Source: Escherichia coli
GTDB lineage: Bacteria > Pseudomonadota > Gammaproteobacteria > Enterobacterales > Enterobacteriaceae
Length of the DNA stretch: 64,000 bases
Reading direction: 5' to 3' (one strand)
NCBI RefSeq assembly: GCF_003018115.1
Contig: NZ_CP027457.1
Shown piece after piece: positions 7,229-42,475 of this stretch (position 1 is the first letter of the stretch; each line of letters starts with the position of its first letter). The position numbers were made by a program, and so were the translations under genes. Under the pieces are notes generated by a model that worked only from the letters and a program-made list of their open reading frames with translations, was not told where the DNA came from and made no database searches.

Positions 7229-7308
7229 GCCTGATGCGCTACGCTTATCATGCCTACAAAGATGCACGATCGAGTAGGCGGGATAAGGCGTTTACGCCGC
7301 ATCCGGCA
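7229..7308. repeat. REP/BIME pair (two inverted REP units)
   Basis: gcctgatgcgctacgcttatcatgcctac ... gtaggcgggataaggcgtttacgccgcatccggc; canonical REP consensus. Confidence 0.8.
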
Positions 7309-7379
7309 TGGAAAACGCGTACTTTGTTATCAATCTGGGGCCAGCAAATGCTGGCCTGATTTGTTCTTGAGGGAAGACT

Positions 7380-8099
7380 ATGATGCGCAAAATGCTGCTG
7401 GCGGCAGCACTTTCAGTGACGGCAATTACCGCTCACGCCGACTACCAGTGCAGCGTCACGCCGCGTGACGATGTGATTGTCAGCCCGCAAACCGTGCAGG
7501 TGAAGGGCGAAAACGGCAATCTGGTGATCACGCCAGACGGCAACGTGATGTATAACGGTAAGCAATATTCTCTGAATGCCGCCCAGCGCGAGCAGGCGAA
7601 GGATTATCAGGCTGAACTACGCAGCACACTGCCGTGGATTGATGAAGGCGCGAAAAGCCGCGTCGAAAAAGCCCGTATTGCTCTGGATAAAATTATCGTT
7701 CAGGAGATGGGCGAAAGCAGCAAAATGCGCAGCCGTCTGACCAAACTTGATGCGCAGCTGAAAGAGCAGATGAACCGCATTATCGAAACGCGCAGCGATG
7801 GCCTGACGTTTCACTATAAAGCCATTGATCAGGTTCGCGCCGAAGGCCAGCAATTAGTGAATCAGGCAATGGGTGGAATTTTACAGGACAGCATTAATGA
7901 AATGGGCGCGAAAGCGGTGCTGAAAAGCGGCGGCAACCCATTACAGAATGTGCTGGGAAGTCTGGGCGGTCTGCAATCCTCAATCCAAACCGAGTGGAAA
8001 AAGCAGGAAAAAGATTTCCAGCAGTTTGGCAAAGATGTTTGTAGCCGCGTTGTGACTCTGGAAGATAGCCGCAAAGCCCTGGTCGGGAATTTAAAATAA
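7380..8099 (+). CDS. yggN: Periplasmic DUF2884 protein YggN
   Basis: 239 aa with N-terminal signal peptide (MMRKMLLAAALSVTAITAHA). Confidence 0.88.
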   Translation: MMRKMLLAAALSVTAITAHADYQCSVTPRDDVIVSPQTVQVKGENGNLVITPDGNVMYNGKQYSLNAAQREQAKDYQAELRSTLPWIDEGAKSRVEKARIALDKIIVQEMGESSKMRSRLTKLDAQLKEQMNRIIETRSDGLTFHYKAIDQVRAEGQQLVNQAMGGILQDSINEMGAKAVLKSGGNPLQNVLGSLGGLQSSIQTEWKKQEKDFQQFGKDVCSRVVTLEDSRKALVGNLK

Positions 8100-8204
8100 T
8101 CCTCTATTTTAAGACGGCATAATACTTTTTTATGCCGTTTAATTCTTCGTTTTGTTACCTGCCTCTAACTTTGTAGATCTCCAAAATATATTCACGTTGT
8201 AAAT

Positions 8205-8218
8205 TGTTTAACGTCAAA
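8205..8218. promoter_or_regulatory. Candidate FNR-type site (TTGTT-N4-GTCAA) upstream of ansB
   Basis: Near-palindromic match to TTGAT-N4-ATCAA about 60 bp upstream of the ansB ATG; ansB is known to be FNR/CRP-activated. Confidence 0.35.
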
Positions 8219-8274
8219 TTTCCCATACAAAGCTAAGGGATAATGCGTAGCGTTCACGTAACTGGAGGAATGAA

Positions 8275-9321
8275 ATGGAGTTTTTCAAAAAGACGGCACT
8301 TGCCGCACTGGTTATGGGTTTTAGTGGTGCAGCATTGGCATTACCCAATATCACCATTTTAGCAACCGGCGGGACCATTGCCGGTGGTGGTGACTCCGCA
8401 ACCAAATCTAACTACACAGCGGGTAAAGTTGGCGTAGAAAATCTGGTTAATGCGGTGCCGCAACTGAAGGACATTGCGAACGTTAAAGGCGAGCAGGTAG
8501 TGAATATCGGCTCCCAGGACATGAACGATAATGTCTGGCTGACACTGGCGAAAAAAATTAACACCGACTGCGATAAGACCGACGGCTTCGTCATTACCCA
8601 CGGTACCGACACGATGGAAGAAACTGCTTACTTCCTCGACCTGACGGTGAAATGCGATAAGCCGGTGGTGATGGTCGGCGCAATGCGTCCGTCCACGTCT
8701 ATGAGCGCAGACGGTCCATTCAACCTGTATAACGCGGTAGTGACCGCAGCTGATAAAGCCTCCGCCAACCGTGGCGTGTTGGTAGTGATGAACGACACCG
8801 TGCTTGATGGCCGTGACGTCACCAAAACCAACACCACCGACGTAGCGACCTTCAAGTCTGTTAACTACGGTCCTCTGGGTTACATTCACAACGGTAAGAT
8901 TGATTACCAGCGTACCCCGGCACGTAAGCACACCAGCGACACGCCATTCGATGTCTCTAAGCTGAATGAACTGCCGAAAGTCGGCATTGTTTATAACTAC
9001 GCTAACGCATCCGATCTTCCGGCTAAAGCACTGGTAGATGCGGGCTATGATGGCATCGTGAGCGCTGGTGTGGGTAACGGCAACCTGTATAAAACCGTAT
9101 TTGACACCCTTGCGACCGCCGCGAAAAACGGCACTGCGGTCGTGCGTTCTTCCCGCGTACCGACGGGCGCTACCACTCAGGATGCCGAAGTGGATGATGC
9201 GAAATACGGCTTCGTCGCCTCTGGCACGTTGAACCCGCAAAAAGCGCGCGTTCTGCTGCAACTGGCTCTGACGCAAACCAAAGATCCGCAGCAGATCCAG
9301 CAGATCTTCAATCAGTACTAA
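8275..9321 (+). CDS. ansB: Periplasmic L-asparaginase II
   Basis: 348 aa, signal peptide, asparaginase active-site motif ILATGGTIAG and full-length identity to AnsB. Confidence 0.96.
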   Translation: MEFFKKTALAALVMGFSGAALALPNITILATGGTIAGGGDSATKSNYTAGKVGVENLVNAVPQLKDIANVKGEQVVNIGSQDMNDNVWLTLAKKINTDCDKTDGFVITHGTDTMEETAYFLDLTVKCDKPVVMVGAMRPSTSMSADGPFNLYNAVVTAADKASANRGVLVVMNDTVLDGRDVTKTNTTDVATFKSVNYGPLGYIHNGKIDYQRTPARKHTSDTPFDVSKLNELPKVGIVYNYANASDLPAKALVDAGYDGIVSAGVGNGNLYKTVFDTLATAAKNGTAVVRSSRVPTGATTQDAEVDDAKYGFVASGTLNPQKARVLLQLALTQTKDPQQIQQIFNQY

Positions 9322-9437
9322 TCACCTCGCCCCGGTATCGTGCCGGGGCTTTTTCACTTCAGACTTACTTCCATTGCCAATTTTTATTACCCTGATGATA
9401 ATCACCGGAATAAATTATTCCGCGCGAGGGTTTTCGG

Positions 9438-10445
9438 GTGAAAAAGCAATGGATTGTTGGCACGGCACTGCTTATGTTGATGACTGGTAATGTCTGGGCA
9501 GATGGCGAACCGCCAACTGAAAATATCTTAAAAGATCAATTCAAAAAGCAGTATCACGGCATTCTCAAGCTTGATGCCATCACCTTAAAAAATCTTGATG
9601 CTAAGGGTAATCAGGCCACCTGGTCAGCGGAAGGCGATGTCTCTTCCAGTGACGATCTCTATACCTGGGTCGGTCAGTTGGCAGATTACGAACTGCTGGA
9701 ACAGACCTGGACGAAAGATAAACCGGTAAAATTCTCGGCAATGTTAACCAGTAAAGGAACGCCCGCGTCTGGCTGGTCGGTGAACTTTTACTCTTTTCAG
9801 GCGGCAGCCAGCGATCGTGGTCGGGTGGTCGACGATATCAAAACGAATAATAAATACCTGATCGTGAATAGCGAAGATTTCAATTATCGTTTTAGTCAGC
9901 TTGAGTCAGCGTTGAATACCCAGAAGAACTCGATTCCTGCGCTGGAGAAGGAAGTGAAAGAGCTTGATAAGAAAATGGCAGCGGCGCAGAAAGCAGCGGA
10001 TGCATATTGGGGAAAAGATGCAAACGGCAAGCAAATGACCCGCGAAGACGCCTTTAAAAAAATTCACCAACAGCGTGATGAGTTTAATAAACAGAACGAT
10101 AGCGAGGCGTTCGCGGTTAAATATGACAAAGAGGTTTATCAACCGGCGATTGCGGCATGTCATAAACAGAGTGAAGAGTGTTATGAAGTGCCGATTCAGC
10201 AGAAACGAGATTTCGATATCAACGAACAACGGCGACAGACTTTTCTGCAATCACAAAAACTCAGCCGTAAATTGCAGGATGACTGGGTAACGCTCGAAAA
10301 AGGGCAATATCCGTTAACGATGAAAGTTTCAGAAATAAACAGTAAAAAAGTCGCGATTTTGATGAAAATTGACGATATCAACCAAGCTAATGAACGCTGG
10401 AAAAAAGATACCGAACAACTGCGGCGCAATGGGGTGATTAAGTAA
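9438..10445 (+). CDS. yggM: DUF1202 periplasmic protein YggM
   Basis: 335 aa, signal peptide, apparent GTG start; conserved neighbour of ansB. Confidence 0.88.
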   Translation: MKKQWIVGTALLMLMTGNVWADGEPPTENILKDQFKKQYHGILKLDAITLKNLDAKGNQATWSAEGDVSSSDDLYTWVGQLADYELLEQTWTKDKPVKFSAMLTSKGTPASGWSVNFYSFQAAASDRGRVVDDIKTNNKYLIVNSEDFNYRFSQLESALNTQKNSIPALEKEVKELDKKMAAAQKAADAYWGKDANGKQMTREDAFKKIHQQRDEFNKQNDSEAFAVKYDKEVYQPAIAACHKQSEECYEVPIQQKRDFDINEQRRQTFLQSQKLSRKLQDDWVTLEKGQYPLTMKVSEINSKKVAILMKIDDINQANERWKKDTEQLRRNGVIK

Positions 10446-10463
10446 GTTTGATATAGTGCCTTT

Positions 10464-10500
10464 GCCGGATAATATAAAAAGTTATCCGGCAAATTATTTT
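10464..10500 (+). terminator. Intrinsic terminator after yggM (shared convergent junction with TRAP operon)
   Basis: Hairpin gccggataa-N9-ttatccggc followed by T-rich tract. Confidence 0.6.
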
Positions 10501-11802
10501 TTACATTAGCCCTAGTAGCTGTGGAATGAACAAGGATATTTGCGGAATGTAAGTGATCATCATCAACGCTACTAGCAATGCAGCATAAAATGGCAGCAAT
10601 GGTTTGATTAAATGTTGAATCTTCACACCCGAGATAGAACAACCAACAAATAGCGCACTACCCACCGGCGGTGTTAACAGCCCAATACAAAGGTTGGCCA
10701 CCATCATAATACCGAAATGTACTGGGTCCATTCCCAGCTCTTGTGCAATCGGCAAGAAGATCGGTGTAAAGATTAGTACAGCCGGTGTCATGTCCATAAA
10801 GATGCCGACAATTAATAAGACGATATTAATCAGCAGCAATATGATCAGTGGGTTATCAGAAATCCCCATCAATGCGTCGCTGATCATATAAGGAATATCA
10901 GCATTAGTCATTGCCCAGGACATGCCCACGGAAAAACCGATCAACAGTAATACAATCGAAGTGGTAACAACCGACTCCAGAATCAGTTTGGGTAAATGGC
11001 GCCATTTTACTTCCCGGTAAATCAGCACCGAGAGAATAAATGTGTAGACAACGGCAATTGCTGACGCTTCAGTTGCGGTAAAAATGCCGCCCAGAATGCC
11101 GCCCATCACAATGAACACCAGAAGCAAACTTGGTAAGGCATCCAGAAACGCTTTACAGGACTGAGCAAAGGTTGCTCTTTCTGAAAGCGGGTAGCCACGG
11201 CGTTTAGCAATAATGCCGCAGACTATCATTACCGCAAGACCCATTAAGATCCCTGGCAAATATCCCGCCATAAATAGCGATGCTACAGAAACGCCGCCAG
11301 CTGTCAGGGAAAACACAATTAACACGTTTGAGGGCGGTATCAGTAATCCAGTAATACAAGATGAGACGTTTACAGCGGTAGAAAATGCCGGATCATAACC
11401 TTGTTTGGTCTGAATGGGATTCAGTGTGCCACCAACGGCAGCAGCTGCCGCAACGGCTGAACCAGAAATGGAACCAAACATCATATTCGCCAGGACGTTC
11501 ACATGACCAAGTGAACCAGGAACCCGACCAACCATTACCTGGGCGAGGTTAATCAAACGTATCGCAATACCGCCGCTGTTCATCAGCGTTCCGGCAAAGA
11601 TGAAAAAGGGGATTGCCAATAGGGCAAAGTTATCCAGTCCATTAGCCAGTCGCTGCGAAACAGTGATTGCCGCGATATCCCAGGGAAACATCAAAAGCAT
11701 TGAAGCTACAGTGGCAATACCGATTGAGAACGAAATGGGCATACCAATAAAGACCAACACAAAAAAACAGCCAAACAGTGTAATCGCGATATAACTATCC
11801 AT
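10501..11802 (-). CDS. TRAP transporter large permease (DctM family)
   Basis: 433 aa polytopic membrane protein with DctM-type sequence; not present at this locus in K-12 as I recall. Confidence 0.88.
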   Translation of the reverse strand: MDSYIAITLFGCFFVLVFIGMPISFSIGIATVASMLLMFPWDIAAITVSQRLANGLDNFALLAIPFFIFAGTLMNSGGIAIRLINLAQVMVGRVPGSLGHVNVLANMMFGSISGSAVAAAAAVGGTLNPIQTKQGYDPAFSTAVNVSSCITGLLIPPSNVLIVFSLTAGGVSVASLFMAGYLPGILMGLAVMIVCGIIAKRRGYPLSERATFAQSCKAFLDALPSLLLVFIVMGGILGGIFTATEASAIAVVYTFILSVLIYREVKWRHLPKLILESVVTTSIVLLLIGFSVGMSWAMTNADIPYMISDALMGISDNPLIILLLINIVLLIVGIFMDMTPAVLIFTPIFLPIAQELGMDPVHFGIMMVANLCIGLLTPPVGSALFVGCSISGVKIQHLIKPLLPFYAALLVALMMITYIPQISLFIPQLLGLM

Positions 11803-12314
11803 TAACTGGCCTCCTGCGCATGTTGTTTCAGTTGTTGAATGCTTTGATTAATAAAACACAAGGCATAAAACATCATCACCAATCCACTTAATGGCAGAAT
11901 GATATATACGTATCCCATCGGTATTTGCATCGCGGCAGATACCTGTGATGTTGCCAGCGTTTTATCAATTAATTTCAGGCCACCAGTCACAATGACCGAA
12001 CCGGCAAAACCTAAAATAAGAACGTTAATGACTATACTAAGAAGTAATTGCTTGCGCTTATTCAGGGCGAGAGCAAATAAATCGATAGAGAGATGTCTCT
12101 GCGCGCCGACGGTATATGCAGCACCTAATAACCCTACCCAGATCATCAAAAATCGTGCCAGCTCATCGGTTAATGTACTTGGCTGGTTAAGTACGTAGCG
12201 GCTAAATACTTGCCAGACTACGCATACAACCAGAGCAAGCATGACGGCGACAGAAAACGCGGCAATGACGCGGTCTACCGCAAGTTTCAGGCGGTTAAAT
12301 ATCATTGTAAGCAT
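11802..12314 (-). CDS. TRAP transporter small permease (DctQ family)
   Basis: 170 aa, 4 predicted TM segments; stop overlaps the dctM-like start by 1 nt. Confidence 0.82.
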   Translation of the reverse strand: MLTMIFNRLKLAVDRVIAAFSVAVMLALVVCVVWQVFSRYVLNQPSTLTDELARFLMIWVGLLGAAYTVGAQRHLSIDLFALALNKRKQLLLSIVINVLILGFAGSVIVTGGLKLIDKTLATSQVSAAMQIPMGYVYIILPLSGLVMMFYALCFINQSIQQLKQHAQEAS

Positions 12315-12349
12315 CCTGGAAAATCAGGGCCAGAGACTGGCCCGGAATA

Positions 12350-31396: not shown

Positions 31397-33388
31397 ATGT
31401 CCTCACGTAAAGAGCTTGCCAATGCTATTCGTGCGCTGAGCATGGACGCAGTACAGAAAGCCAAATCCGGTCACCCGGGTGCCCCTATGGGTATGGCTGA
31501 CATTGCCGAAGTCCTGTGGCGTGATTTCCTGAAACACAACCCGCAGAATCCGTCCTGGGCTGACCGTGACCGCTTCGTGCTGTCCAACGGCCACGGCTCC
31601 ATGCTGATCTACAGCCTGCTGCACCTCACCGGTTACGATCTGCCGATGGAAGAACTGAAAAACTTCCGTCAGCTGCACTCTAAAACTCCGGGCCACCCGG
31701 AAGTGGGTTACACCGCTGGTGTGGAAACCACCACCGGTCCGCTGGGGCAGGGTATTGCCAACGCAGTCGGTATGGCGATTGCAGAAAAAACGCTGGCGGC
31801 GCAGTTTAACCGTCCGGGCCACGACATTGTCGACCACTACACCTACGCCTTCATGGGCGACGGCTGCATGATGGAAGGCATCTCCCACGAAGTTTGCTCT
31901 CTGGCGGGTACGCTGAAGCTGGGTAAACTGATTGCATTCTACGATGACAACGGTATTTCTATCGATGGTCACGTTGAAGGCTGGTTCACCGACGACACCG
32001 CAATGCGTTTCGAAGCTTACGGCTGGCACGTTATTCGCGACATCGACGGCCATGACGCAGCATCCATCAAACGCGCAGTTGAAGAAGCGCGCGCAGTGAC
32101 TGACAAACCGTCCCTGCTGATGTGCAAAACCATCATCGGTTTCGGTTCCCCGAACAAAGCCGGTACCCACGACTCCCACGGTGCGCCGCTGGGCGACGCT
32201 GAAATTGCCCTGACCCGCGAACAGCTGGGCTGGAAATACGCGCCGTTCGAAATCCCGTCTGAAATCTATGCGCAGTGGGATGCGAAAGAAGCAGGTCAGG
32301 CGAAAGAATCTGCATGGAACGAGAAGTTTGCTGCTTACGCCAAAGCTTATCCGCAGGAAGCTGCTGAATTCACCCGTCGTATGAAAGGCGAAATGCCGTC
32401 TGACTTCGACGCGAAAGCGAAAGAGTTCATTGCTAAACTGCAGGCTAATCCGGCGAAAATCGCCAGCCGTAAAGCGTCTCAGAATGCTATTGAAGCGTTC
32501 GGCCCGTTGTTGCCGGAATTCCTCGGCGGCTCTGCTGACCTGGCACCGTCTAACCTGACCCTGTGGTCTGGTTCTAAAGCAATCAACGAAGATGCTGCGG
32601 GTAACTACATCCACTACGGTGTTCGCGAGTTCGGTATGACCGCGATTGCTAACGGTATCTCCCTGCACGGTGGTTTCCTGCCGTACACCTCCACCTTCCT
32701 GATGTTCGTGGAATACGCACGTAACGCCGTACGTATGGCTGCGCTGATGAAACAGCGTCAGGTGATGGTTTACACCCACGACTCCATCGGTCTGGGCGAA
32801 GACGGCCCGACTCACCAGCCGGTTGAGCAGGTCGCTTCTCTGCGCGTGACCCCGAACATGTCTACATGGCGTCCGTGTGACCAGGTTGAATCCGCGGTCG
32901 CGTGGAAATACGGTGTTGAGCGTCAGGACGGTCCGACCGCGCTGATCCTCTCCCGTCAGAACCTGGCGCAGCAGGAGCGTACTGAAGAGCAACTGGCAAA
33001 CATCGCGCGCGGTGGTTATGTGCTGAAAGACTGTGCTGGTCAGCCGGAACTGATCTTCATCGCCACCGGTTCTGAAGTTGAACTGGCGGTTGCTGCCTAC
33101 GAAAAACTGACTGCCGAAGGCGTGAAAGCGCGCGTGGTTTCCATGCCGTCTACCGACGCATTCGACAAGCAGGACGCGGCTTACCGTGAGTCTGTCCTGC
33201 CGAAAGCGGTTACTGCACGCGTTGCGGTGGAAGCGGGTATTGCTGACTACTGGTACAAGTATGTTGGCCTGAACGGTGCTATCGTCGGTATGACCACCTT
33301 CGGTGAATCTGCTCCGGCAGAGCAACTCTTTGAAGAGTTCGGCTTCACCGTTGACAACGTTGTTGCGAAAGCAAAAGAACTGCTGTAA
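31397..33388 (+). CDS. tktA: Transketolase 1
   Basis: ORF 31367..33388; start set at [12 protein letters not shown] (663 aa); TPP-binding motifs. Confidence 0.98.
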
Positions 33389-33401
33389 TTAGCATTTTGG
33401 G

Positions 33402-33430
33402 TAAAAAGGTCGCTTCGGCGACCTTTTTTA
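33402..33430 (+). terminator. tktA intrinsic terminator
   Basis: ggtcgc-ttcg-gcgacc hairpin followed by tttttt. Confidence 0.8.
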
Positions 33431-33701
33431 TTACCTTGACATGTCCGTTTTCGGACGAGCAATAGATAAAGCGTGTTGTAGATCACAAATATTTATATGC
33501 AATAAATATCAATTATGTAATATGCATCACGATATGCGTGTTGACATTTGTTGTTATATCTATAACTCAATGTTATATAAGAAATTAATAATTCACTGTT
33601 TTCAAAACACCGGTTTCCCTGCTCAATTGCTTTCATTAAACCGCACGAGTATTTTATTTTTACCGCCGGACGGTACCCTAAAAATAAAATAAGGATAATT
33701 T

Positions 33702-34145
33702 ATGCGGCTTAGTGATTATTTTCCAGAATCATCAATCTCAGTTATACATTCAGCAAAAGATTGGCAGGAAGCTATCGATTTCTCGATGGTATCATTGCTG
33801 GATAAAAACTATATCAGCGAGAATTACATTCAGGCAATTAAAGATTCCACCATTAACAATGGCCCTTATTATATTCTCGCACCAGGCGTGGCAATGCCTC
33901 ATGCGCGACCGGAATGTGGGGCGCTTAAAACCGGGATGTCTTTGACATTACTTGAACAAGGTGTTTATTTTCCGGGGAATGACGAACCAATTAAATTACT
34001 CATCGGACTCTCTGCTGCCGATGCCGATTCGCACATTGGCGCTATTCAGGCGTTAAGTGAATTACTGTGCGAAGAAGAAATACTCGAACAACTCTTAACA
34101 GCATCATCAGAAAAACAATTAGCGGACATTATCAGCCGCGGATAA
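33702..34145 (+). CDS. cmtB: Mannitol-family PTS EIIA (cryptic)
   Basis: 147 aa, PTS EIIA-2 domain with His motif (GVAMPHAR). Confidence 0.9.
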   Translation: MRLSDYFPESSISVIHSAKDWQEAIDFSMVSLLDKNYISENYIQAIKDSTINNGPYYILAPGVAMPHARPECGALKTGMSLTLLEQGVYFPGNDEPIKLLIGLSAADADSHIGAIQALSELLCEEEILEQLLTASSEKQLADIISRG

Positions 34146-34172
34146 TTACTCTCTCCTCTACAGGATAATATT

Positions 34173-35561
34173 ATGGAAAACAAGTCTGCTCGTGCAAAGG
34201 TCCAGGCTTTTGGGGGCTTTTTGACTGCAATGGTCATCCCCAATATTGGTGCTTTTATTGCCTGGGGTTTTATTACTGCGTTATTTATTCCCACCGGTTG
34301 GCTGCCTAACGAACATTTCGCCAAAATTGTCGGCCCGATGATTACCTATTTATTGCCCGTGATGATTGGTTCTACCGGTGGTCATCTGGTCGGCGGTAAA
34401 CGCGGCACGGTCATGGGCGGAATAGGTACTATTGGTGTGATCGTCGGCGCAGAGATCCCGATGTTCCTTGGCTCAATGATTATGGGGCCGCTCGGTGGGC
34501 TGGTCATAAAATATGTCGATAAGGCACTGGAAAAACGCATACCTGCTGGTTTTGAGATGGTTATCAATAACTTCTCATTAGGTATCGCGGGGATGCTCCT
34601 TTGCCTGCTGGGTTTTGAAGTGATCGGCCCGGCGGTGTTAATTGCCAATACTTTCGTCAAAGAGTGTATTGAGGCGCTGGTACATGCGGGTTATCTGCCT
34701 CTGCTGTCAGTCATCAATGAACCGGCGAAAGTGCTTTTCCTTAATAATGCGATCGATCAGGGCGTCTATTATCCGCTGGGAATGCAACAGGCTTCGGTTA
34801 ACGGTAAATCCATCTTCTTTATGGTGGCCTCTAACCCAGGTCCGGGCCTGGGGCTGCTGCTGGCGTTTACCTTGTTTGGTAAAGGGATGAGTAAACGTTC
34901 TGCGCCCGGGGCGATGATTATTCACTTCCTCGGTGGGATCCACGAACTGTATTTCCCATATGTGCTGATGAAGCCGCTGACTATTATTGCCATGATTGTG
35001 GGCGGTATGTCTGGCACCTGGATGTTTAACTTACTGGACGGTGGTCTGGTGGCTGGCCCAAGTCCGGGGTCTATCTTTGCTTACCTGGCGCTGACGCCGA
35101 AAGGTTCGTTCCTGGCGACAATTGCCGGTGTTACGGTAGGTACCCTGGTGTCCTTTGCTATCACTTCGCTGATACTGAAGATGGAAAAAACGGTGGAAAC
35201 GGAGAGCGAAGATGAGTTTGCTCAGTCAGCCAATGTGGTTAAGGCGATGAAACAAGAGGGTGCATTCTCGTTAAGCAGGGTTAAGCGTATCGCCTTTGTT
35301 TGCGATGCGGGGATGGGCTCCAGTGCGATGGGCGCGACCACCTTCCGTAAACGCCTGGAAAAAGCGGGGCTGGCAATTGAAGTAAAACATTACGCCATAG
35401 AAAACGTGCCTGCGGATGCGGATATCGTCGTTACTCATGCCAGTCTGGAAGGGCGCGTGAAACGTGTGACGGATAAACCACTGATATTGATTAATAACTA
35501 TATTGGCGATCCAAAACTCGACACTTTATTTAATCAATTAACCGCCGAACATAAACACTGA
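34173..35561 (+). CDS. cmtA: Mannitol-family PTS EIICB (cryptic)
   Basis: 462 aa, polytopic EIIC followed by EIIB (CDAGMGSS). Confidence 0.92.
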   Translation: MENKSARAKVQAFGGFLTAMVIPNIGAFIAWGFITALFIPTGWLPNEHFAKIVGPMITYLLPVMIGSTGGHLVGGKRGTVMGGIGTIGVIVGAEIPMFLGSMIMGPLGGLVIKYVDKALEKRIPAGFEMVINNFSLGIAGMLLCLLGFEVIGPAVLIANTFVKECIEALVHAGYLPLLSVINEPAKVLFLNNAIDQGVYYPLGMQQASVNGKSIFFMVASNPGPGLGLLLAFTLFGKGMSKRSAPGAMIIHFLGGIHELYFPYVLMKPLTIIAMIVGGMSGTWMFNLLDGGLVAGPSPGSIFAYLALTPKGSFLATIAGVTVGTLVSFAITSLILKMEKTVETESEDEFAQSANVVKAMKQEGAFSLSRVKRIAFVCDAGMGSSAMGATTFRKRLEKAGLAIEVKHYAIENVPADADIVVTHASLEGRVKRVTDKPLILINNYIGDPKLDTLFNQLTAEHKH

Positions 35562-35575
35562 TTACAGAGGTAAAA

Positions 35576-36853
35576 ATGAAAACCAAAGTTGCTGCTATTT
35601 ATGGCAAGCGGGATGTCCGTCTGCGCGAATTTGAACTACCAGAAATTACCGATAATGAATTACTGGTGAGTGTGATTTCTGACAGCGTCTGTTTATCCAC
35701 CTGGAAAGCGGCGTTACTCGGTAGTGAACATAAACGCGTACCCGACGATTTAGAAAATCATCCGGTCATTACCGGGCATGAATGTGCCGGGGTTATTGTC
35801 GAAGTGGGTAAAAATCTCACTGGCAAATATAAAAAAGGCCAGCGTTTTGTATTGCAACCGGCGATGGGATTACCAAGCGGATATTCAGCGGGCTACAGCT
35901 ACGAATATTTTGGCGGCAATGCCACTTATATGATTATTCCCGAAATCGCCATTAATTTGGGCTGCGTATTACCGTATCACGGCTCTTATTTTGCTGCGGC
36001 GTCGCTGGCAGAGCCTATGTGCTGCATTATTGGTGCTTATCATGCCAATTATCACACCACGCAATATGTTTATGAGCATCGCATGGGCGTCAAACCTGGC
36101 GGCAATATTGCGCTACTGGCGTGTGCAGGTCCGATGGGCATTGGCGCTATAGATTACGCCATTAACGGCGGCATACAACCGTCGCGGGTGGTGGTGGTCG
36201 ATATCGACGACACACGTCTGGCGCAGGTACAGAAGCTGCTGCCGGTGGAACTGGCGGCCAGTAAAGGCATTGAGCTGGTGTATGTGAATACCAAAGGGAT
36301 GAGCGATCCTGTCCAGATGCTGCGGGCGCTGACAGGAGATGCCGGGTTCGATGACATTTTTGTTTATGCGGCGGTGCCTGCTGTCGTTGAGATGGCTGAT
36401 GAATTACTGGCGGAAGATGGCTGTCTGAACTTCTTTGCCGGGCCGACGGATAAAAACTTCAAAGTGCCGTTTAATTTCTACAACGTTCATTACAACAGCA
36501 CGCACGTCGTCGGTACATCCGGCGGTTCAACGGACGACATGAAAGAGGCGATTGCCCTTAGCGCCACTGGGCAGTTACAGCCGTCGTTTATGGTGACCCA
36601 TATCGGTGGCCTGGATGCGGTGCCAGAAACCGTGCTCAATCTGCCGGATATCCCTGGCGGTAAAAAACTCATTTATAACGGCGTGACCATGCCGCTCACT
36701 GCCATTGCCGATTTTGCCGAAAAAGGCAAAACCGATCCGCTGTTTAAAGAGTTGGCGCGGCTGGTTGAGAAAACGCACGGCATCTGGAATGAACAGGCCG
36801 AGAAATATCTGCTGGCACAATTTGGCGTTGATATCGGGGAGGCCGCGCAATGA
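35576..36853 (+). CDS. yggP: Zinc-type alcohol dehydrogenase-like (MDR) protein YggP
   Basis: 425 aa, MDR family (GHECAG zinc-ligand region, Rossmann fold). Confidence 0.9.
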   Translation: MKTKVAAIYGKRDVRLREFELPEITDNELLVSVISDSVCLSTWKAALLGSEHKRVPDDLENHPVITGHECAGVIVEVGKNLTGKYKKGQRFVLQPAMGLPSGYSAGYSYEYFGGNATYMIIPEIAINLGCVLPYHGSYFAAASLAEPMCCIIGAYHANYHTTQYVYEHRMGVKPGGNIALLACAGPMGIGAIDYAINGGIQPSRVVVVDIDDTRLAQVQKLLPVELAASKGIELVYVNTKGMSDPVQMLRALTGDAGFDDIFVYAAVPAVVEMADELLAEDGCLNFFAGPTDKNFKVPFNFYNVHYNSTHVVGTSGGSTDDMKEAIALSATGQLQPSFMVTHIGGLDAVPETVLNLPDIPGGKKLIYNGVTMPLTAIADFAEKGKTDPLFKELARLVEKTHGIWNEQAEKYLLAQFGVDIGEAAQ

Positions 36854-37815
36854 TGTCCCTGGCGTGGCCATTATTTCGCGTTACGGAACAGGCAGCGTTG
36901 GCTGCCTGGCCGCAAACCGGATGTGGCGACAAAAATAAAATTGATGGCCTGGCGGTCACCGCGATGCGCCAGGCATTAAACGAAGTCGCTTTTCGTGGAC
37001 GAGTGGTTATCGGCGAAGGAGAAATTGACCATGCGCCGATGCTGTGGATTGGAGAAGAGGTGGGCAAAGGCGATGGGCCAGAAGTCGATATCGCGGTTGA
37101 TCCCATTGAAGGCACGCGGATGGTGGCGATGGGGCAGAGCAATGCGCTGGCGGTCATGGCTTTCGCCCCTCGAGATAGCCTGTTACATGCGCCCGATATG
37201 TATATGAAAAAGCTGGTTGTTAATCGACTGGCTGCCGGGGCGATTGATCTGTCTTTGCCTCTGGCGGACAACTTGCGTAACGTGGCGCGGGCGTTAGGTA
37301 AACCGCTGGACAAGCTGCGCATGGTTACGCTGGATAAACCGCGTCTGAGTGCCGCGATTGAAGAAGCAACACAGCTGGGCGTGAAGGTTTTTGCCCTGCC
37401 GGATGGCGATGTCGCCGCCAGCGTGCTGACCTGCTGGCAGGATAATCCTTACGATGTGATGTACACCATCGGCGGTGCGCCGGAAGGCGTGATTTCTGCC
37501 TGTGCCGTTAAAGCATTAGGCGGGGATATGCAGGCCGAGCTGATTGACTTTTGTCAGGCTAAAGGGGATTACACGGAAAATCGGCAGATTGCAGAGCAGG
37601 AGCGCAAGCGTTGCAAGGCAATGGGCGTTGACGTTAACCGTGTGTACTCGCTCGATGAACTGGTGAGGGGGAACGATATCCTCTTTAGCGCTACGGGCGT
37701 GACGGGCGGTGAGCTGGTGAACGGTATCCAACAGACGGCGAATGGGGTGCGGACGCAGACATTACTGATCGGCGGCGCGGACCAAACGTGTAATATAATA
37801 GACTCCCTGCATTGA
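36850..37815 (+). CDS. yggF: Class II fructose-1,6-bisphosphatase (GlpX paralogue) YggF
   Basis: 321 aa GlpX-family; start overlaps yggP stop. Confidence 0.92.
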   Translation: MMSLAWPLFRVTEQAALAAWPQTGCGDKNKIDGLAVTAMRQALNEVAFRGRVVIGEGEIDHAPMLWIGEEVGKGDGPEVDIAVDPIEGTRMVAMGQSNALAVMAFAPRDSLLHAPDMYMKKLVVNRLAAGAIDLSLPLADNLRNVARALGKPLDKLRMVTLDKPRLSAAIEEATQLGVKVFALPDGDVAASVLTCWQDNPYDVMYTIGGAPEGVISACAVKALGGDMQAELIDFCQAKGDYTENRQIAEQERKRCKAMGVDVNRVYSLDELVRGNDILFSATGVTGGELVNGIQQTANGVRTQTLLIGGADQTCNIIDSLH

Positions 37816-37836
37816 TGGTGATCTATCGGAAGACCA

Positions 37837-38346
37837 ATGGCGACGCTGACAGAAGATGATGTGCTTGAGCAACTGGATGCACAGGACAATTTATTTTCAT
37901 TTATGAAAACGGCGCATTCTATTTTGCTCCAGGGGATACGCCAGTTTCTACCGTCGCTGTTTGTCGATAACGATGAAGAGATCGTCGAATATGCAGTGAA
38001 GCCGTTACTCGCCCAAAGCGGCCCGCTTGACGATATTGATGTTGCGCTGCGTTTGATTTATGCGCTGGGGAAAATGGATAAATGGCTGTACGCCGATATC
38101 ACGCACTTTTCCCAGTTCTGGCATTACCTGAACGAACAGGATGAAATGCCCGGATTTGCCGATGACATGACCTGGGATTTTATCAGCAACGTCAATAGCA
38201 TAACCCGCAATGCGACGCTCTATGACGCGTTGAAAGCGATGAAGTTCGCCGATTTCGCCGTCTGGTCAGAGGCGCGTTTTAGCGGGATGGTCAAAACGGC
38301 GCTGACGCTGGCAGTAACGACAACCTTAAAGGAATTAACGCCGTGA
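37837..38346 (+). CDS. yggD: MtlR-like regulatory protein YggD
   Basis: 169 aa, MtlR-family. Confidence 0.88.
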   Translation: MATLTEDDVLEQLDAQDNLFSFMKTAHSILLQGIRQFLPSLFVDNDEEIVEYAVKPLLAQSGPLDDIDVALRLIYALGKMDKWLYADITHFSQFWHYLNEQDEMPGFADDMTWDFISNVNSITRNATLYDALKAMKFADFAVWSEARFSGMVKTALTLAVTTTLKELTP

Positions 38347-39056
38347 AAATTGAATTAACGGTGAATGGTCTGAAGGTACAGGCACAGTACCATGATGATG
38401 AGATAGAAAATGTACATAAACCGTTGCTGCGCATGTTGGCGGCCTTACAGACGGTAAATCCGCAGCGGCGTACGGTAGTTTTTCTTTGCGCTCCGCCGGG
38501 GACGGGGAAATCTACCCTAACCACCTTCTGGGAATATCTCGCACAACAAGACCCGGAACTACCCGCTATTCAGACGCTCCCGATGGATGGTTTTCACCAT
38601 TACAATAGCTGGCTGGATGCGCATCAATTGCGCCCCTTCAAAGGCGCACCAGAGACATTTGACGTTGCGAAACTGGCGGAAAATCTGCGCCAGGTAATGG
38701 AAGGGGATTGTACGTGGCCACAGTACGATCGACAAAAGCATGATCCTGTTGAAGATGCGTTGCACGTTACCGCACCACTCGTCATCGTCGAAGGAAACTG
38801 GTTGTTGCTGGACGACGAGAAGTGGTGCCAGCTTGCGCAATTTTGTGATTTCTCGATCTTTATCAACGCGCCAGCTACTGCGTTGCGGGAACGACTGGTG
38901 GGGCGCAAGCTGGCGGGAGGGTTATCGCTGGCAGACGCAGAAGCCTTTTATGACCGTACCGATGGGCCGAATGTTCGCCGGGTGCTGGAAGAGAGTCTGC
39001 CTGCACATTTGACCTTAATAATGACCGCTACGGGTGAATATCGTCTGGTGGATTAA
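38343..39056 (+). CDS. yggC: P-loop NTPase/kinase-like protein YggC
   Basis: 237 aa, Walker A (APPGTGKST). Confidence 0.9.
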   Translation: MKIELTVNGLKVQAQYHDDEIENVHKPLLRMLAALQTVNPQRRTVVFLCAPPGTGKSTLTTFWEYLAQQDPELPAIQTLPMDGFHHYNSWLDAHQLRPFKGAPETFDVAKLAENLRQVMEGDCTWPQYDRQKHDPVEDALHVTAPLVIVEGNWLLLDDEKWCQLAQFCDFSIFINAPATALRERLVGRKLAGGLSLADAEAFYDRTDGPNVRRVLEESLPAHLTLIMTATGEYRLVD

Positions 39057-39705
39057 CGTTCCTGATTACACCATCTTCCAGTCGCACCACCCGAGAGAAA
39101 TGACGCCGGGTAAATGCGGCGTCATGACTGATTGCTACGACGCTCGTGCCTCGCTGGCGGCACTTTTCCAGCCAGCTTTCAAACACGCTCATCCAATTTT
39201 CGTCAAAATCCCGACTCGGCTCGTCCAGCAGCAATAGCGGCGGAGAGAGTGCTTCCAGGCAGGCGACGGCGACCATCCGTCGCTGCGCACTATGCAGATC
39301 TAACGGATGCGCGCTGGCAGTGTCTGCTAACTGACAGCATTGCAGGGCAGCATGGGTACGTTGAGTGATTTCATCCGCCGGGCATTTTTGCAGTTTCAAA
39401 CCAAATGCGATCTCGTCGGCGACGGTGCTGTGAAAAAGCTGGTTTTCCGCTTCCTGAAACAGTACGCCAATCTTTGCTGCACGTTGGCGGTTTTTCAGGT
39501 TTTTCATCGCCTGTTGTTGCAATATAACCGTACCGGTTGTGGGCGTAAGAAGACCTGCCATTACTCGTAACAGCGTCGATTTTCCCGCGCCATTGTCGCC
39601 GGTCAGCGCCAACCATTCACCTTGTTTGAGTTGCAGAGAAATGTCGCAAAGACAATCCGTTGCCGCGCCAGGCCAGCGATAAGTTATCTGATTTAACGTT
39701 AGCAT
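39028..39705 (-). CDS. ECF/ABC transporter ATPase subunit 2 (EcfA'-like) with degenerate signature motif
   Basis: 225 aa; Walker A GDNGAGKST, Walker B LLLLDEPS, LSGGQ replaced by LHSAQRR; 3' end overlaps yggC 3' end by 29 bp (convergent). Confidence 0.85.
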   Translation of the reverse strand: MLTLNQITYRWPGAATDCLCDISLQLKQGEWLALTGDNGAGKSTLLRVMAGLLTPTTGTVILQQQAMKNLKNRQRAAKIGVLFQEAENQLFHSTVADEIAFGLKLQKCPADEITQRTHAALQCCQLADTASAHPLDLHSAQRRMVAVACLEALSPPLLLLDEPSRDFDENWMSVFESWLEKCRQRGTSVVAISHDAAFTRRHFSRVVRLEDGVIRNVNPPDDIHP

Positions 39706-40376
39706 AGTGGCTGGAGCGCTCCGTTTTGCAATTGCCAGGCTTGCTGGCAGTAGTTCAGGAAAGGTGTGCGATGACGTTCAAAAAGAATAATCAGCGAACC
39801 ACGTTCAAGCGCCCAGTGTTGTAAGCGCTGCAACAGCATTTCGCTGGCCTGCGGCGTCAGGCGACTAAAGGCTTCATCAAGTATTAAGAGCTTTGGCTGC
39901 ATCGCGATGGCGCAGGCGATGACCACGCGCTGTGTCTCTCCACCGGAGAGTGTTGCCGGGTGACGATGGCGCAACGGCTGGCACTCGGTCAGAGTCAGGG
40001 CGGCATCAATCCGCGCCATAATCTCTTCTTCAGCAAGACACAGATTTTCTGGCCCAAAGGCAACTTCTTCTTCCACGCTAAAGGTACAGCCGGAGAGCTG
40101 CAAATAGGGCGATTGCTGAACGAGCTGGATGGTGGCGGATTGTTCATTAAGCGGGAGATGCCCAATGGGCGTACCGAGAAGCGTCCCCGTGCCGGTTATC
40201 TCTCCTGGCAGAAAGTCCGGATACCAGCCCGCCATCAGCTGTGCCAGCGTACTTTTGCCACTGCCGTTGTCACCAAAGATGGCGACCATCCCCGGTTTGA
40301 CATAGTGAAAGTCATAACAGAACGGAGGATGCGTTGAGTGTGTCGGGCAATAACGGAACTGTTCTAACGTAACCAT
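39699..40376 (-). CDS. ECF/ABC transporter ATPase subunit 1 (EcfA-like)
   Basis: Walker A GDNGSGKST, signature LSGGETQR, Walker B LLILDEA; first ATG at 40376 (GTG at 40382 also possible); overlaps flanking genes. Confidence 0.85.
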   Translation of the reverse strand: MVTLEQFRYCPTHSTHPPFCYDFHYVKPGMVAIFGDNGSGKSTLAQLMAGWYPDFLPGEITGTGTLLGTPIGHLPLNEQSATIQLVQQSPYLQLSGCTFSVEEEVAFGPENLCLAEEEIMARIDAALTLTECQPLRHRHPATLSGGETQRVVIACAIAMQPKLLILDEAFSRLTPQASEMLLQRLQHWALERGSLIILFERHRTPFLNYCQQAWQLQNGALQPLC

Positions 40377-41071
40377 ATCCACGCTCCGAATTCTGTCAGC
40401 ATCAGCAAGATCATGGTGTAACGCGCTACGCGTTGTAGGGTGCTATCGGCTGGTGCCCACAACGTTGTTCGTCGGTTGTGGATCCGAAATGCCCGCATAT
40501 CCAGCGCCGCACCACGGACAGCAAGATTGTTTAGCGCATTGTGTGTTAGCGGAATAATTAACGCGGGCATCGCACGTAAACGCTGATACCAGCCCTCATC
40601 CAGCGGCACGCCGCGGGCACGCTGCGCTTCATGAATAATCGCTAATTGCCGTTTTAACTGCTCAACGACCAATAACGGCCCGGCAAACAGATAAGCGACG
40701 CCTGGCGGCAGGCGAGAAGCAAACAGAGCGCGGATAAAACATTGCACGGGGACGTACTGCATCCACAACTGTGAGGTTGAAACAATCGCCAGAATCCGCA
40801 ACCAGAGCGTAATAGCATGCGTCCAACGCTCCGGCGAACGCGGCGTGCCGCTTAGCCATTCTGTTAGCCAGCCACCGTGTACCAGCCACAGCCCGGCTCC
40901 CAGCGAGAACATCAGCCAGACGACATATTTTGCCCGCCGCCGCGTGGCCTTTAGCGCAATAAGGCAGAAAAAGGTCGCCGCGCTATAGACTGGCAGTATT
41001 GTCTGTGTGGGCAGGATAAGCGTGGTGCAGGCCGCCAATGCCCATAGTGTTAATGAGGTAAATGGATGCAT
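40364..41071 (-). CDS. ECF transporter transmembrane T component (EcfT/CbiQ family)
   Basis: 235 aa polytopic; conserved Ala-Arg-Gly motifs (EAQRARGVP, LAVRGAAL); start codon directly abuts the S-component stop. Confidence 0.83.
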   Translation of the reverse strand: MHPFTSLTLWALAACTTLILPTQTILPVYSAATFFCLIALKATRRRAKYVVWLMFSLGAGLWLVHGGWLTEWLSGTPRSPERWTHAITLWLRILAIVSTSQLWMQYVPVQCFIRALFASRLPPGVAYLFAGPLLVVEQLKRQLAIIHEAQRARGVPLDEGWYQRLRAMPALIIPLTHNALNNLAVRGAALDMRAFRIHNRRTTLWAPADSTLQRVARYTMILLMLTEFGAWIWLR

Positions 41072-41650
41072 TTAGCGCACGGCAGCCATTGCCGGAAAAT
41101 GGCGCGTGGTGCGAATCGGCAGCTGGCGCAGTAAAAGCCAGACAATCACCGCTGTAAGAGTTTTATCGACCAGGTTCGCGCCTATCACCGTAATCGCCAC
41201 CGACTCCACCAGGTTTTGCCCCATCGAGTGCATCCAGGCAACGAACAAATCGGCTCCGCTACCGGTGACACCGCCGAACAGCGCAGTACGCAGCGGTACA
41301 GCGACGACCGTTACCGCAAGCGTAATAATCACGCCGCTGACAACGACTTTTGGCAGGGTGCGAAACCAACCCGCTCGCGCCAGCCAACCGGCGACCAGGC
41401 CGATGACCATCGCGACGGGTGCAAATGCGGCGGCGATCGGGTCGGTCAGCAATCCCCAGAGTAAATTGGTCAGTAAGCCGGTCAGCATTCCGATCACCGG
41501 ACCAAGCAGTACCGCGCTAATAAGTGTGCCGATGGAGTCGAGAAATATAGGTAATTTGACCATGCTGGCCAGTTGCCCGCCGATCATATTGATGGCGATA
41601 GATATAACGATCAACACCAGTGCCTGACTGGAAAAGTGGCTACGCGCCAT
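41072..41650 (-). CDS. ECF transporter substrate-specific S component (substrate unknown)
   Basis: 192 aa from MARSHFSS, ~6 TM segments, GAGAGG RBS 7 nt upstream; S-component-like small integral membrane protein. Confidence 0.75.
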   Translation of the reverse strand: MARSHFSSQALVLIVISIAINMIGGQLASMVKLPIFLDSIGTLISAVLLGPVIGMLTGLLTNLLWGLLTDPIAAAFAPVAMVIGLVAGWLARAGWFRTLPKVVVSGVIITLAVTVVAVPLRTALFGGVTGSGADLFVAWMHSMGQNLVESVAITVIGANLVDKTLTAVIVWLLLRQLPIRTTRHFPAMAAVR

Positions 41651-41672
41651 AAGAAAACCTCTCTGAAAGTAG

Positions 41673-42104
41673 TTATTTAACGGGGGAAATATGCAACTCG
41701 TCGTAACCAGAAAGCGCGCAAGGTTGGCGGCTAAACGCCAGTTCCTCAAGGCTACCGATCACCAGTTCAAGCGTGGTCCGCACGGTACAGCCGGGCATCA
41801 TATGACCGCCAAGCATCGTGCCGTGTGGATCGGAAACGCAGAGATGAAGATGCTCACCACTCTGTTCCAACGTGCCGTTTAGTGAGATCACTTCGAATGT
41901 ACCGTTCAGGAGCGTGGTGCCTTCTTGCCCGGCATAGCGCAAGGCGATGTCAGTCAGGCTACCGGTACAGCCTGCAATCCAGGCGGCATGAAGTTGCTGC
42001 TGCTGTGCAAAAGCGTGTAGCTGGGAAAAAACTTCCTGCCCGGGGAGGAGGCGCAGTGCGTAAAAGCGTGCGGAGGAAGAATATGGGTAGGGCAATGTCA
42101 TCAT
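41673..42104 (-). CDS. PPC/DUF296 domain protein, first gene of the ECF operon
   Basis: 143 aa; recognised as PPC (DUF296) from memory; GGAG RBS 7 nt upstream of MMTLPYPY. Confidence 0.7.
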   Translation of the reverse strand: MMTLPYPYSSSARFYALRLLPGQEVFSQLHAFAQQQQLHAAWIAGCTGSLTDIALRYAGQEGTTLLNGTFEVISLNGTLEQSGEHLHLCVSDPHGTMLGGHMMPGCTVRTTLELVIGSLEELAFSRQPCALSGYDELHISPVK

Positions 42105-42475
42105 TGGAGTACTCCGAAACTCGGACGTATTGCGGATAATATCGACGCTGCATCAGTCATATTCTGATATAAGTCAGGGTTTGTGACGGCACAACGAAAA
42201 GATTTTGCTACGCTTATTCGTGATTCTGCAAAGTGGAATAAATTCCACAGGGGCGGGGCTGAAAACGTGACGTAAGTCAGATATTTGTTTTCTTTGACTG
42301 GACAATCATTCCTTTTATTCCACGTTTCGCTTATCCTAGCTGAAGCGTTTCAGTCGATTAAATGTTCGACAATTAACCAATCAGTCGCAGTTTGCGACAG
42401 GTAAGGTTTCCCCGGACGATTTGCTGGATTACTCTGTCTGGCAAATTTGCTCAGGGAAAACCTTGCAGGAGATCT

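Follow-up and report, generated by a model that had tools for sequence, protein, structure and literature searches.

Among the described systems closest to the cluster treated here, SorE is an L-sorbose-1-phosphate reductase, which acts on the carbon adjacent to the terminal phosphate installed by a phosphotransferase system (PTS); MtlR acts through protein contact with HPr; and in glpFKX a gluconeogenic step accompanies a pathway whose entry point lies below fructose-6-phosphate. The subject of this work is cmtBA-yggPFDC, a six-gene cluster in a 64,000-nucleotide stretch of Escherichia coli DNA (contig NZ_CP027457.1 of assembly GCF_003018115.1; hereafter the window). The best-studied bacterium has few PTS operons, and this one lacks a known substrate despite strong purifying selection on it; Vibrionaceae and gut Clostridia share its four-gene core. 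The comparative pattern of SorE-type chemistry, an obligatory P-loop kinase and an interchangeable slot leads to a short, testable biochemical scheme, in which the cluster would be a self-contained PTS route for the catabolism of a mannitol-like sugar alcohol, which would enter glycolysis as a bisphosphorylated ketose. We regard this reading as quite possible and hold it with reserve. More tentatively, this may be a PTS route never characterized biochemically, found from E. coli and Vibrio to gut Lachnospiraceae, in which YggP makes a ketose-1-phosphate and YggC is a ketose-1-phosphate kinase, new for the PRK/PanK fold and a non-orthologous replacement of 1-phosphofructokinase. If true, this would supply a function for the PRK09270/FrcK kinase subfamily and a new polyol entry route into glycolysis.

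In the program-made open reading frame (ORF) list of the window, the cluster spans exactly positions 33702-39056, with all six genes on the plus strand:

33702-34145, plus strand: cmtB, 147 aa; PTS enzyme IIA (EIIA) of the mannitol/fructose EIIA_2 type
34173-35561, plus strand: cmtA, 462 aa; PTS enzyme IICB (EIICB), mannitol family
35576-36853, plus strand: yggP, 425 aa, a single ORF; SorE-like zinc/NAD medium-chain dehydrogenase
36850-37815, plus strand: yggF, 321 aa; paralog of class II, GlpX-type fructose-1,6-bisphosphatase (FBPase), by sequence
37837-38346, plus strand: yggD (annotated fumE), 169 aa; MtlR-fold protein
38343-39056, plus strand: yggC, 237 aa, GTG start; P-loop kinase of the PRK/uridine-kinase/PanK fold, by sequence

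The intergenic distances from cmtB through yggC are, in order, 27, 14, −4, 21 and −4 bp, the negative values being 4-bp overlaps of the yggF start with the yggP stop and of the yggC start with the yggD stop. A simple terminator scan found no terminator between the genes, and the terminator-like matches within the cluster all lie inside the cmtA coding sequence (3, versus 7.2 in shuffled sequence). Shared orientation, the 4-bp overlaps, gaps of no more than 27 bp and the terminator scan suggest a single operon. The same six genes appear in the RefSeq annotation of a 100% identical genome, where yggD is named fumE, "fumarase E", and K-12 MG1655 has the identical six-gene order, with locus tags that run from b2930 through b4465 to b2933. 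Positions 33000-40000 of the window are 100% identical to several O169:H41-type E. coli strains, and this region is matched in 5425 of 5426 complete E. coli genomes. The cluster is thus part of the core E. coli genome, known and already annotated in K-12, and as a sequence feature it is ordinary. The gene identities assigned in the initial annotation are borne out by the ORFs, by Pfam and NCBIfam domain matches and by the RefSeq and K-12 annotations, and the tight spacing, shared plus strand and limits it gave are reproduced exactly in the ORF list. It had also singled out yggP as one intact ORF of 425 aa; the ORF is indeed intact, which is no peculiarity of this strain, since K-12 yggP (b4465) is likewise 425 aa long. 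Its remark that the physiological substrate is poorly defined still holds: the full-text literature searched yielded no substrate or functional assignment for cmtBA-yggPFDC, and the publication that by its own account would have overturned it, one assigning the whole cluster to a known substrate, did not appear there.

The comparative evidence is what is new here. One genome per species was scanned for YggP relatives, which gave 80 loci; these were searched with the six window proteins, and their neighboring genes were clustered. Forty-four loci, from Enterobacterales, Vibrionaceae and Lachnospiraceae or other Clostridia, were informative (YggP identity of at least 62% and usable flanks). The genes for EIIA (cmtB), EIICB (cmtA) and YggC adjoin yggP in every one of the 44, so that the core consists of four genes, cmtB, cmtA, yggP and yggC. 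All six genes stand in the same order in Escherichia, Citrobacter, Salmonella, Klebsiella, Enterobacter, Raoultella, Superficieibacter, Phytobacter, Buttiauxella, Providencia and others. The loci of Lachnospiraceae and other Clostridia run PRD/Mga/EIIA regulator, cmtB, yggC, cmtA, yggP, with neither yggD nor yggF, and in all proteobacterial clusters yggD and yggC are neighbors. A chance juxtaposition does not account for this arrangement.

Purifying selection acts on each of the six genes, and the operon is maintained. The ratio of nonsynonymous to synonymous substitution rates (dN/dS) between the window and K-12, E. albertii, Citrobacter, Salmonella diarizonae, Klebsiella spallanzanii and Buttiauxella is 0.02-0.23 across the six genes, with dS often saturated. 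The catalytic motifs, namely the EIIA histidine, the EIIB cysteine, the Walker A motif and the zinc and NAD motifs of YggP, are intact. Low dN/dS together with intact motifs implies that "cryptic", as applied to this cluster, means silent in the laboratory and not decaying.

YggP carries the ADH_N and ADH_zinc_N domains of medium-chain dehydrogenases, and its closest characterized relative is SorE, to whose family it belongs by sequence. Compared with the annotated SorE of a Klebsiella replicon, it shows 45.8% identity over 98% of the length (E = 3e-114), and the replicon context is genuine: a sorCDFBAME operon in which canonical sorC, sorD and mannose-type PTS genes adjoin. A YggP/SorE homolog on a Lactiplantibacillus plasmid lies in the same kind of sor operon. 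In an eight-sequence alignment (A1), YggP and SorE are 47% identical, many family-specific blocks are common to YggP, SorE and their paralogs, and C39, H68, E69, E146, G185-P-M-G188 and D209 are invariant across all of them; YggP thus retains the zinc ligands C39/H68/E69, the GPMG dinucleotide motif and the acidic D209. The best PDB match (E = 5e-9) covers the N-terminal part only, and no close solved structure was found. Given its homology to SorE, YggP should interconvert a polyol-1-phosphate and a ketose-1-phosphate, and we propose for it the role of a polyol-1-phosphate 2-dehydrogenase or, equivalently, a ketose-1-phosphate reductase.

More distant YggP homologs, at 55-59% identity, occur in Lentisphaerae, Spirochaetes and Clostridia metagenome-assembled genomes (loci L049-L082; positions ~10001-11250) with no PTS or yggC genes nearby. 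Many of them have one or more of these neighbors: a set of fused E1 (823 aa), E2 and E3 resembling acetoin/2-oxoacid dehydrogenase complexes, a 628-aa fusion of a class II aldolase and a short-chain dehydrogenase/reductase (SDR), and a DeoR regulator, all of these labels being our reading of the sequences. These homologs look like members of a different, apparently uncharacterized pathway and give no help with the substrate. A K-12 sigma-54 site detected by chromatin immunoprecipitation (ChIP) lies inside yggP (PMC4591121), and the corresponding motif is present in the window:

36096-36112, plus strand: intragenic sigma-54 motif CTGGCGGCAATATTGCG within yggP, 1 mismatch to the K-12 site

It was rejected as a conserved regulatory feature, as its TGGC element is kept only in Escherichia. 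The motif coincides with the codons for GGNIA and is probably incidental.

YggC is, by sequence, a P-loop kinase of the PRK/uridine-kinase/PanK fold and falls in the PRK09270 group (NF006742, PRK09270.1-1 nucleoside/nucleotide kinase, an equivalog model, 520.5 versus 402). Its Walker A motif, APPGTGKST, is intact. PDB matches are 3c8u, a structural-genomics "fructokinase" (E = 2e-22), and pantothenate kinases near 1e-9; the Pfam model PF00485 is not reached by the window protein and is recorded for YggC orthologs. The relatives that share this fold, PanK, Udk and PRK, are small-molecule kinases. As of 2011, "sugar/polyol kinase" was a prediction for YggC still in progress. We take YggC to be FrcK-like, an assumption made from the PRK09270 family and the P-loop/PanK domain described in the FrcK paper rather than from a direct comparison. 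In Sinorhizobium meliloti, mutation of frcK lowers fructose uptake and deregulates mannitol transport, and FrcK is not the fructokinase (PMC10433430). A search for YggC-like domains in 1.8 billion representative proteins found two kinds of fusion partner, PfkB sugar kinases (P0344, P0355) and a Cof-type HAD sugar phosphatase (P0257), and one of the PfkB fusions adjoins a lyxose-isomerase-family gene and an FGGY kinase gene. These fusions, and the 1-phosphofructokinase that occupies the equivalent position in a Hespellia module described below, make phosphorylation of the ketose-1-phosphate formed by YggP the simplest reading of YggC.

The remaining catalytic gene, yggF, is one of several lineage-dependent occupants of an accessory slot. 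By sequence match YggF is a class II, GlpX-type FBPase with predicted activity (TIGR00330, the GlpX equivalog, 586.2 versus 259.3; PF03320, FBPase_glpX, 405 bits, full length). Brown (2009) is said to be the primary paper for that activity. Another publication counts YggF, as a type II FBPase, among four FBPase isozymes (PMC3105977). The gene is present only in clusters of the Enterobacteriaceae type (21 enterobacterial loci); Rahnella and Budvicia lack it and have the arrangement cmtB-cmtA-yggP-yggD-yggC. In all 12 Vibrionaceae loci a 248-aa YcdX-like PHP phosphatase follows yggC in place of yggF (PRK09248, 335 versus 264). Hungatella-type loci carry a pyrophosphate (PPi)-dependent phosphofructokinase, a reversible enzyme, just upstream (PRK14072, 484 versus 273), and in Anaerostipes and Hespellia a class II fructose-1,6-bisphosphate aldolase directly follows yggP (TIGR01859, 385 versus 343). 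One Hespellia locus (L041) has a second module composed of EIIA, 1-phosphofructokinase (TIGR03828, 329.7 versus 292) and a YggP paralog of 52% identity. YggF, the PPi-dependent phosphofructokinase and the aldolase would all act on a ketose-1,6-bisphosphate, which points to a bisphosphate step in the pathway; from its position, the PHP phosphatase of Vibrionaceae may do so too. We propose that a slot converting fructose-1,6-bisphosphate to fructose-6-phosphate would be filled by YggF, the PHP phosphatase or the PPi-dependent phosphofructokinase according to lineage. Transcripts of yggF were 30.8-fold higher, and those of glpX 9.6-fold higher, in a co-culture of E. coli with Chlamydomonas than in LB (PMC10972114). 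The rise of yggF in the co-culture could reflect activation by cyclic AMP (cAMP)-CRP or an algal compound.

CmtB belongs to the EIIA_2 family (PF00359, PTS_EIIA_2, 102.9 bits; NF007358, the equivalog "PTS mannitol transporter subunit IIA", 326 against a cutoff of 192) and has its phosphorylatable histidine within the motif GVAMPHARPE. CmtA combines PTS_EIIC (PF02378) and PTS_IIB (PF02302) domains and passes the mannitol-family models narrowly (TIGR00851 mtlA, 480.1 versus 468.4; NF011663, 590.6 versus 589). It is 52% identical to a Rahnella MtlA, and its intact EIIB cysteine motif, VCDAGMGSSAMGA, aligns with that protein (family motif CDAGMGSSAMG). Domains and motif place CmtA among the mannitol-family, MtlA-like IICB proteins (TC 4.A.2), for which D-mannitol transport would be predicted. 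Reporter data for the operon come from a Biolog screen of 198 compounds with PcmtA-gfp; the inducers that the study names are uridine, bromo-succinic acid and inosine, nucleosides rank at the top among these, and uridine also induced 13 other sugar-transporter promoters (PMC12412646). The breadth of the uridine effect makes the PcmtA response look like a general catabolite effect. Deletion of cmtA raises the minimum inhibitory concentration (MIC) of tobramycin, which argues that the operon is expressed to some extent. Aminoglycoside uptake is affected by how strongly CmtAB is expressed (PMC12412646), so that there could be practical use in knowing the true inducer.

In Rahnella (L023-L025, positions 8078-17800), cmtB-cmtA-yggP-yggD-yggC lies directly beside an apparent mtlA (640 aa)-mtlD (382 aa)-mtlR group. 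The mtlA label is given for 52% identity to CmtA, and the mtlD and mtlR labels for size, position and a weak YggD-like match.

YggD has, by domain and structure matches, an MtlR-family fold (PF05068, 178.6 bits; PDB 3c8g at E = 5e-109, and the MtlR structures 6kcr and 3brj). MtlR was the only family matched in Pfam and NCBIfam, with no homology to class I or class II fumarases. The primary report of a FumE/YggD fumarase activity is reportedly that of Sevin (2017). ChIP-exo gave no DNA-binding signal for YggD (PMC8464067). The 38 proteobacterial clusters all contain yggD, which Clostridia lack; there a PRD/Mga/EIIA regulator takes its place, and this swap and the MtlR fold suggest that YggD is probably the regulatory component of the cluster. 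Two rare proteins of 406 aa (P0121, P0131) fuse the MtlR domain of YggD to YggC. A 1-nt change at the 4-bp overlap is the probable origin of such fusions, and they could be sequencing errors.

Put together, these assignments give the following scheme. CmtB and CmtA would import a polyol and phosphorylate it at C1, and YggP, as an NAD-type, SorE-like enzyme, would oxidize the carbon next to the phosphate to yield a ketose-1-phosphate, either fructose-1-phosphate or a close analog. YggC would then add a second phosphate, standing in for the unrelated 1-phosphofructokinase, and the resulting ketose-1,6-bisphosphate would be split by a class II aldolase to enter glycolysis. YggF would return part of the bisphosphate to the 6-phosphate (fructose-6-phosphate) for biosynthesis, as glpX does in glpFKX, and YggD, with its MtlR fold, would be a regulatory component. 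Expression would depend on cAMP-CRP and otherwise be low in laboratory media, perhaps by way of a palindrome that lies over the promoter. Either mannitol-1-phosphate or glucitol-1-phosphate as the intermediate would give fructose-1-phosphate, and the identity of the polyol cannot be read from the sequence. In nature the cluster could serve a polyol that standard panels do not include, such as a rare hexitol. A heptitol (volemitol or perseitol) could likewise be converted to sedoheptulose-1-phosphate, then to sedoheptulose-1,7-bisphosphate and, via YggF, to sedoheptulose-7-phosphate. Rare hexitols and heptitols are attractive since none of the reported standard-panel inducers is a polyol, and the heptitol idea would fit the adjacency of a transketolase gene in E. 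coli and three Vibrio species. In the latter (L028, L030 and L042; positions ~5600-8000) a co-oriented transketolase gene lies immediately upstream of cmtB-cmtA-yggP-yggD-yggC-PHP, and in E. coli tktA (window 31397-33388) is likewise upstream of cmtB and co-oriented. This adjacency may go back to old synteny or may reflect a functional link to pentose or heptose phosphate metabolism.

Several points weigh against this scheme. Beyond the identity, intactness and selection of the genes, we infer the route from comparative genomics only. We know of no member of the YggC family with a biochemically proven sugar-phosphate substrate, and distant YggC homologs have heterogeneous neighbors that say nothing about the substrate. 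Mannitol and glucitol are already served in E. coli by the mtl and srl systems, which tells against the scheme if the substrate is either of these. The Rahnella and Budvicia clusters have no phosphatase or phosphofructokinase partner, and the Anaerostipes aldolase is followed by an unrelated ispF-like gene, so that the aldolase could be a housekeeping neighbor. The role of FrcK of S. meliloti in fructose and hexitol use is unclear and possibly one of modulating transport (PMC10433430). YggD is cited as "verified as fumarase E" in one source (PMC8464067). Mannitol-induced antibiotic tolerance requires mtlA and not cmtA (PMC11656735), a difficulty if the substrate is mannitol, and none of the inducers named in the PcmtA study is a polyol, mannitol included (PMC12412646). 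These published experiments argue against mannitol as the working substrate of the cmt cluster in the laboratory.

The same experiments bear on the idea that CmtAB is a redundant or back-up mannitol transporter, which supplies mannitol-1-phosphate to MtlD, and that yggPFDC are unrelated passengers, namely a surplus dehydrogenase, a surplus FBPase, a fumarase and a kinase of no known role. CmtA does pass the mannitol-family models, if barely, and has 52% identity to a true MtlA; the Rahnella cluster stands beside an apparent mtlA-mtlD-mtlR, and the RefSeq name of yggD is "fumarase E". We consider this idea unlikely, as mannitol tolerance needs mtlA and not cmtA, mannitol is not among the PcmtA inducers named in that study, EIIA, EIICB, YggP and YggC stay linked across three phyla despite reshuffled order, as passengers would not be expected to, and the 4-bp overlaps and gaps of at most 27 bp point to one operon. 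A different objection concerns the direction of the dehydrogenase. By annotation and operon context SorE works reductively on L-sorbose-1-phosphate, and the EIIA/1-phosphofructokinase/YggP-paralog module of Hespellia can also be read as a ketose-1-phosphate branch point. The PTS would then import a ketose and phosphorylate it at C1, in the manner of the fructose branch of this PTS superfamily, YggP would reduce it to a hexitol phosphate, SrlD or MtlD would convert this to fructose-6-phosphate, and YggC and YggF would have side or regulatory roles. That CmtA scores with the mannitol and not the fructose subfamily, that the cluster never includes an equivalent of SorD, the second dehydrogenase always carried by sor operons, and that the strict linkage of YggC and the aldolase, phosphofructokinase and FBPase partners would be left unexplained make this course improbable in our view.

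We likewise give little credence to a purely regulatory YggD-YggC pair, in which YggC modulates the transporter or YggD, along lines suggested for FrcK, and catabolism is left to the PTS, YggP and host enzymes such as FruK. The translational coupling of yggD and yggC through their 4-bp overlap and their adjacency in all proteobacterial clusters would suit such a pair, as would the lowered fructose uptake and deregulated mannitol transport of the frcK mutant (PMC10433430); since ChIP-exo records no DNA binding of YggD (PMC8464067), YggD may act via protein contacts. Yet Clostridia keep yggC without yggD, located between the EIIA and EIICB genes, and both the fusions of YggC-like domains to PfkB and HAD phosphatase proteins and the small-molecule kinases among its fold relatives point to small-molecule sugar-phosphate chemistry. 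That the cluster is a decaying evolutionary remnant without current function is barely credible. It has historically been called cryptic, and no laboratory phenotype on standard carbon sources is known; its presence in 5425 of 5426 genomes, dN/dS of 0.02-0.23, the conservation of all catalytic motifs and promoter elements and the measurable change in tobramycin MIC on deletion of cmtA speak to the contrary, and the selection analysis has already largely refuted this explanation. The catabolic scheme, with YggP and YggC acting in sequence on a PTS-imported polyol, is the reading that we favor.

Upstream of cmtB lie the following elements, of which the four after the tktA terminator are conserved in an alignment of 13 genera:

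33403-33428, plus strand: tktA intrinsic terminator AAAAAGGTCGC-TTCG-GCGACCTTTTT followed by a T-run; perfect 11-nt inverted repeat
33472-33487, plus strand: distal CRP-like site CGTGTTGTAGATCACA; 2 mismatches, near TGTGA-N6-TCACA in most other genera
33516-33531, plus strand: proximal CRP-like site TGTAATATGCATCACG; 44 bp from the distal site, with an ATCAC half-site invariant across genera
33627-33655, plus strand: candidate sigma-70 promoter, TTGCTT, 17-nt spacer, TATTTT; suggested by conservation
33650-33662 and 33679-33691, no strand assigned: candidate operator, a perfect 13-nt AT-rich inverted repeat TATTTTATTTTTA / TAAAAATAAAATA, 100% complementary

The tktA terminator, which the simple terminator scan did not list, delimits the cmt transcription unit on its upstream side. 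CRP binds and activates the cmtB promoter (PMC3105977; PMC12412646). A search with the CRP consensus by itself performs at chance level (26 matches, 26 expected), and the two CRP-like sites are credible only because of their cross-genus conservation and the published CRP dependence. Few parts of the intergenic region are as well conserved as the TTGCTT and TATTTT hexamer blocks; a promoter scan at a 9-of-12 threshold did not report this candidate. The 13-nt repeat (33650-33691) contains an inner ACCG/CGGT repeat, overlaps the -10-like hexamer and reaches the cmtB Shine-Dalgarno sequence. It is conserved across Enterobacteriaceae genera in the same alignment, and the Vibrionaceae upstream regions do not share it. 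An RNA element at this palindrome was rejected: no Rfam match was found on either strand of 33300-39400, and the palindrome folds no better than shuffled sequence (z = −0.27). With no unusual RNA fold and no Rfam family, we read it as a candidate DNA operator, which could explain the laboratory silence of the operon. A pattern search found no Cra/FruR-like site in the cmtB promoter region, where one would be expected if fructose-1-phosphate is made. The only good Cra/FruR-like site in the window is the palindrome CTGAAGCGTTTCAG at 42340-42353 (1 mismatch), upstream of epd-pgk-fbaA.

At the other end of the cluster, the yggC alleles of E. coli fall into two deeply diverged classes. About 3344 genomes carry an allele of at least 90% nucleotide identity to that of the window, and 2071 carry one of only 80-90%, the last ~70 bp of which cannot be aligned. 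Between the window and K-12, YggC has 84% protein identity (dS 0.49), versus 98-100% (dS up to 0.12) for the five neighboring genes. Between yggC and epd, on the minus strand and convergent with yggC, lies a module of the energy-coupling factor (ECF) transporter type (window 39028-42104), one of whose ATPase genes overlaps the 3' end of yggC by 29 bp:

39028-39705 and 39699-40382, minus strand: ABC ATPases of the ECF module
40364-41071, minus strand: T component
~41072-41650, minus strand: S component
~41673-42104, minus strand: PPC-domain DNA-binding protein

Of 5426 complete E. coli genomes, 3330 carry this island, which K-12 lacks; it is also found in E. albertii, Citrobacter, S. diarizonae, Superficieibacter and Buttiauxella. 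The counts of the two yggC alleles roughly match those of genomes with (3330) and without (~2100) the island, and this match, together with the yggC divergence, suggests that recombination or replacement took place long ago at the border of the island. On a Firmicutes-type contig (L090, 298-4549) the gene for a distant YggC-like kinase directly follows ecfA-ecfA'-ecfT-truA, an arrangement that echoes the adjacency of yggC and the ECF module in the window and is probably a coincidence.

Compared with known systems, cmtBA-yggPFDC resembles E. coli mtlADR in its mannitol-family enzyme II with the same EIIB cysteine motif, in the presence of an MtlR-fold protein within the operon and in CRP dependence. 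It differs in having a separate IIA protein, a SorE-like medium-chain enzyme instead of MtlD, and an additional P-loop kinase and class II FBPase; moreover, mannitol is apparently neither its working substrate nor, among the inducers named, its inducer. With the sor operons of Klebsiella and Lactobacillus (sorCDFBAME, an L-sorbose PTS) it has in common a SorE/YggP homolog whose partner PTS yields a six-carbon compound phosphorylated at C1, whereas sor has a mannose-family PTS, the second SDR dehydrogenase SorD and the regulator SorC, and carries no kinase and no FBPase. The logic proposed for cmt would parallel that of fruBKA, in which a 1-phosphate made by the PTS is phosphorylated again to the 1,6-bisphosphate, and Hespellia indeed pairs 1-phosphofructokinase with a YggP paralog; unlike FruK, the cmt kinase has a PRK/PanK P-loop fold and not a PfkB fold, and a dehydrogenase step would precede it. 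A GlpX-type FBPase inside a catabolic operon is also found in glpFKX, and by analogy we infer a similar role for YggF, in an operon with another transporter and pathway and with an FBPase that is evolutionarily dispensable, being absent in Rahnella, Budvicia, Vibrionaceae and Clostridia. Finally, frcBCAK of S. meliloti encodes a kinase that we take to be YggC-like together with a fructose/hexitol uptake system, which, unlike that of cmt, is an ABC transporter and not a PTS and is accompanied by no SorE-like dehydrogenase.

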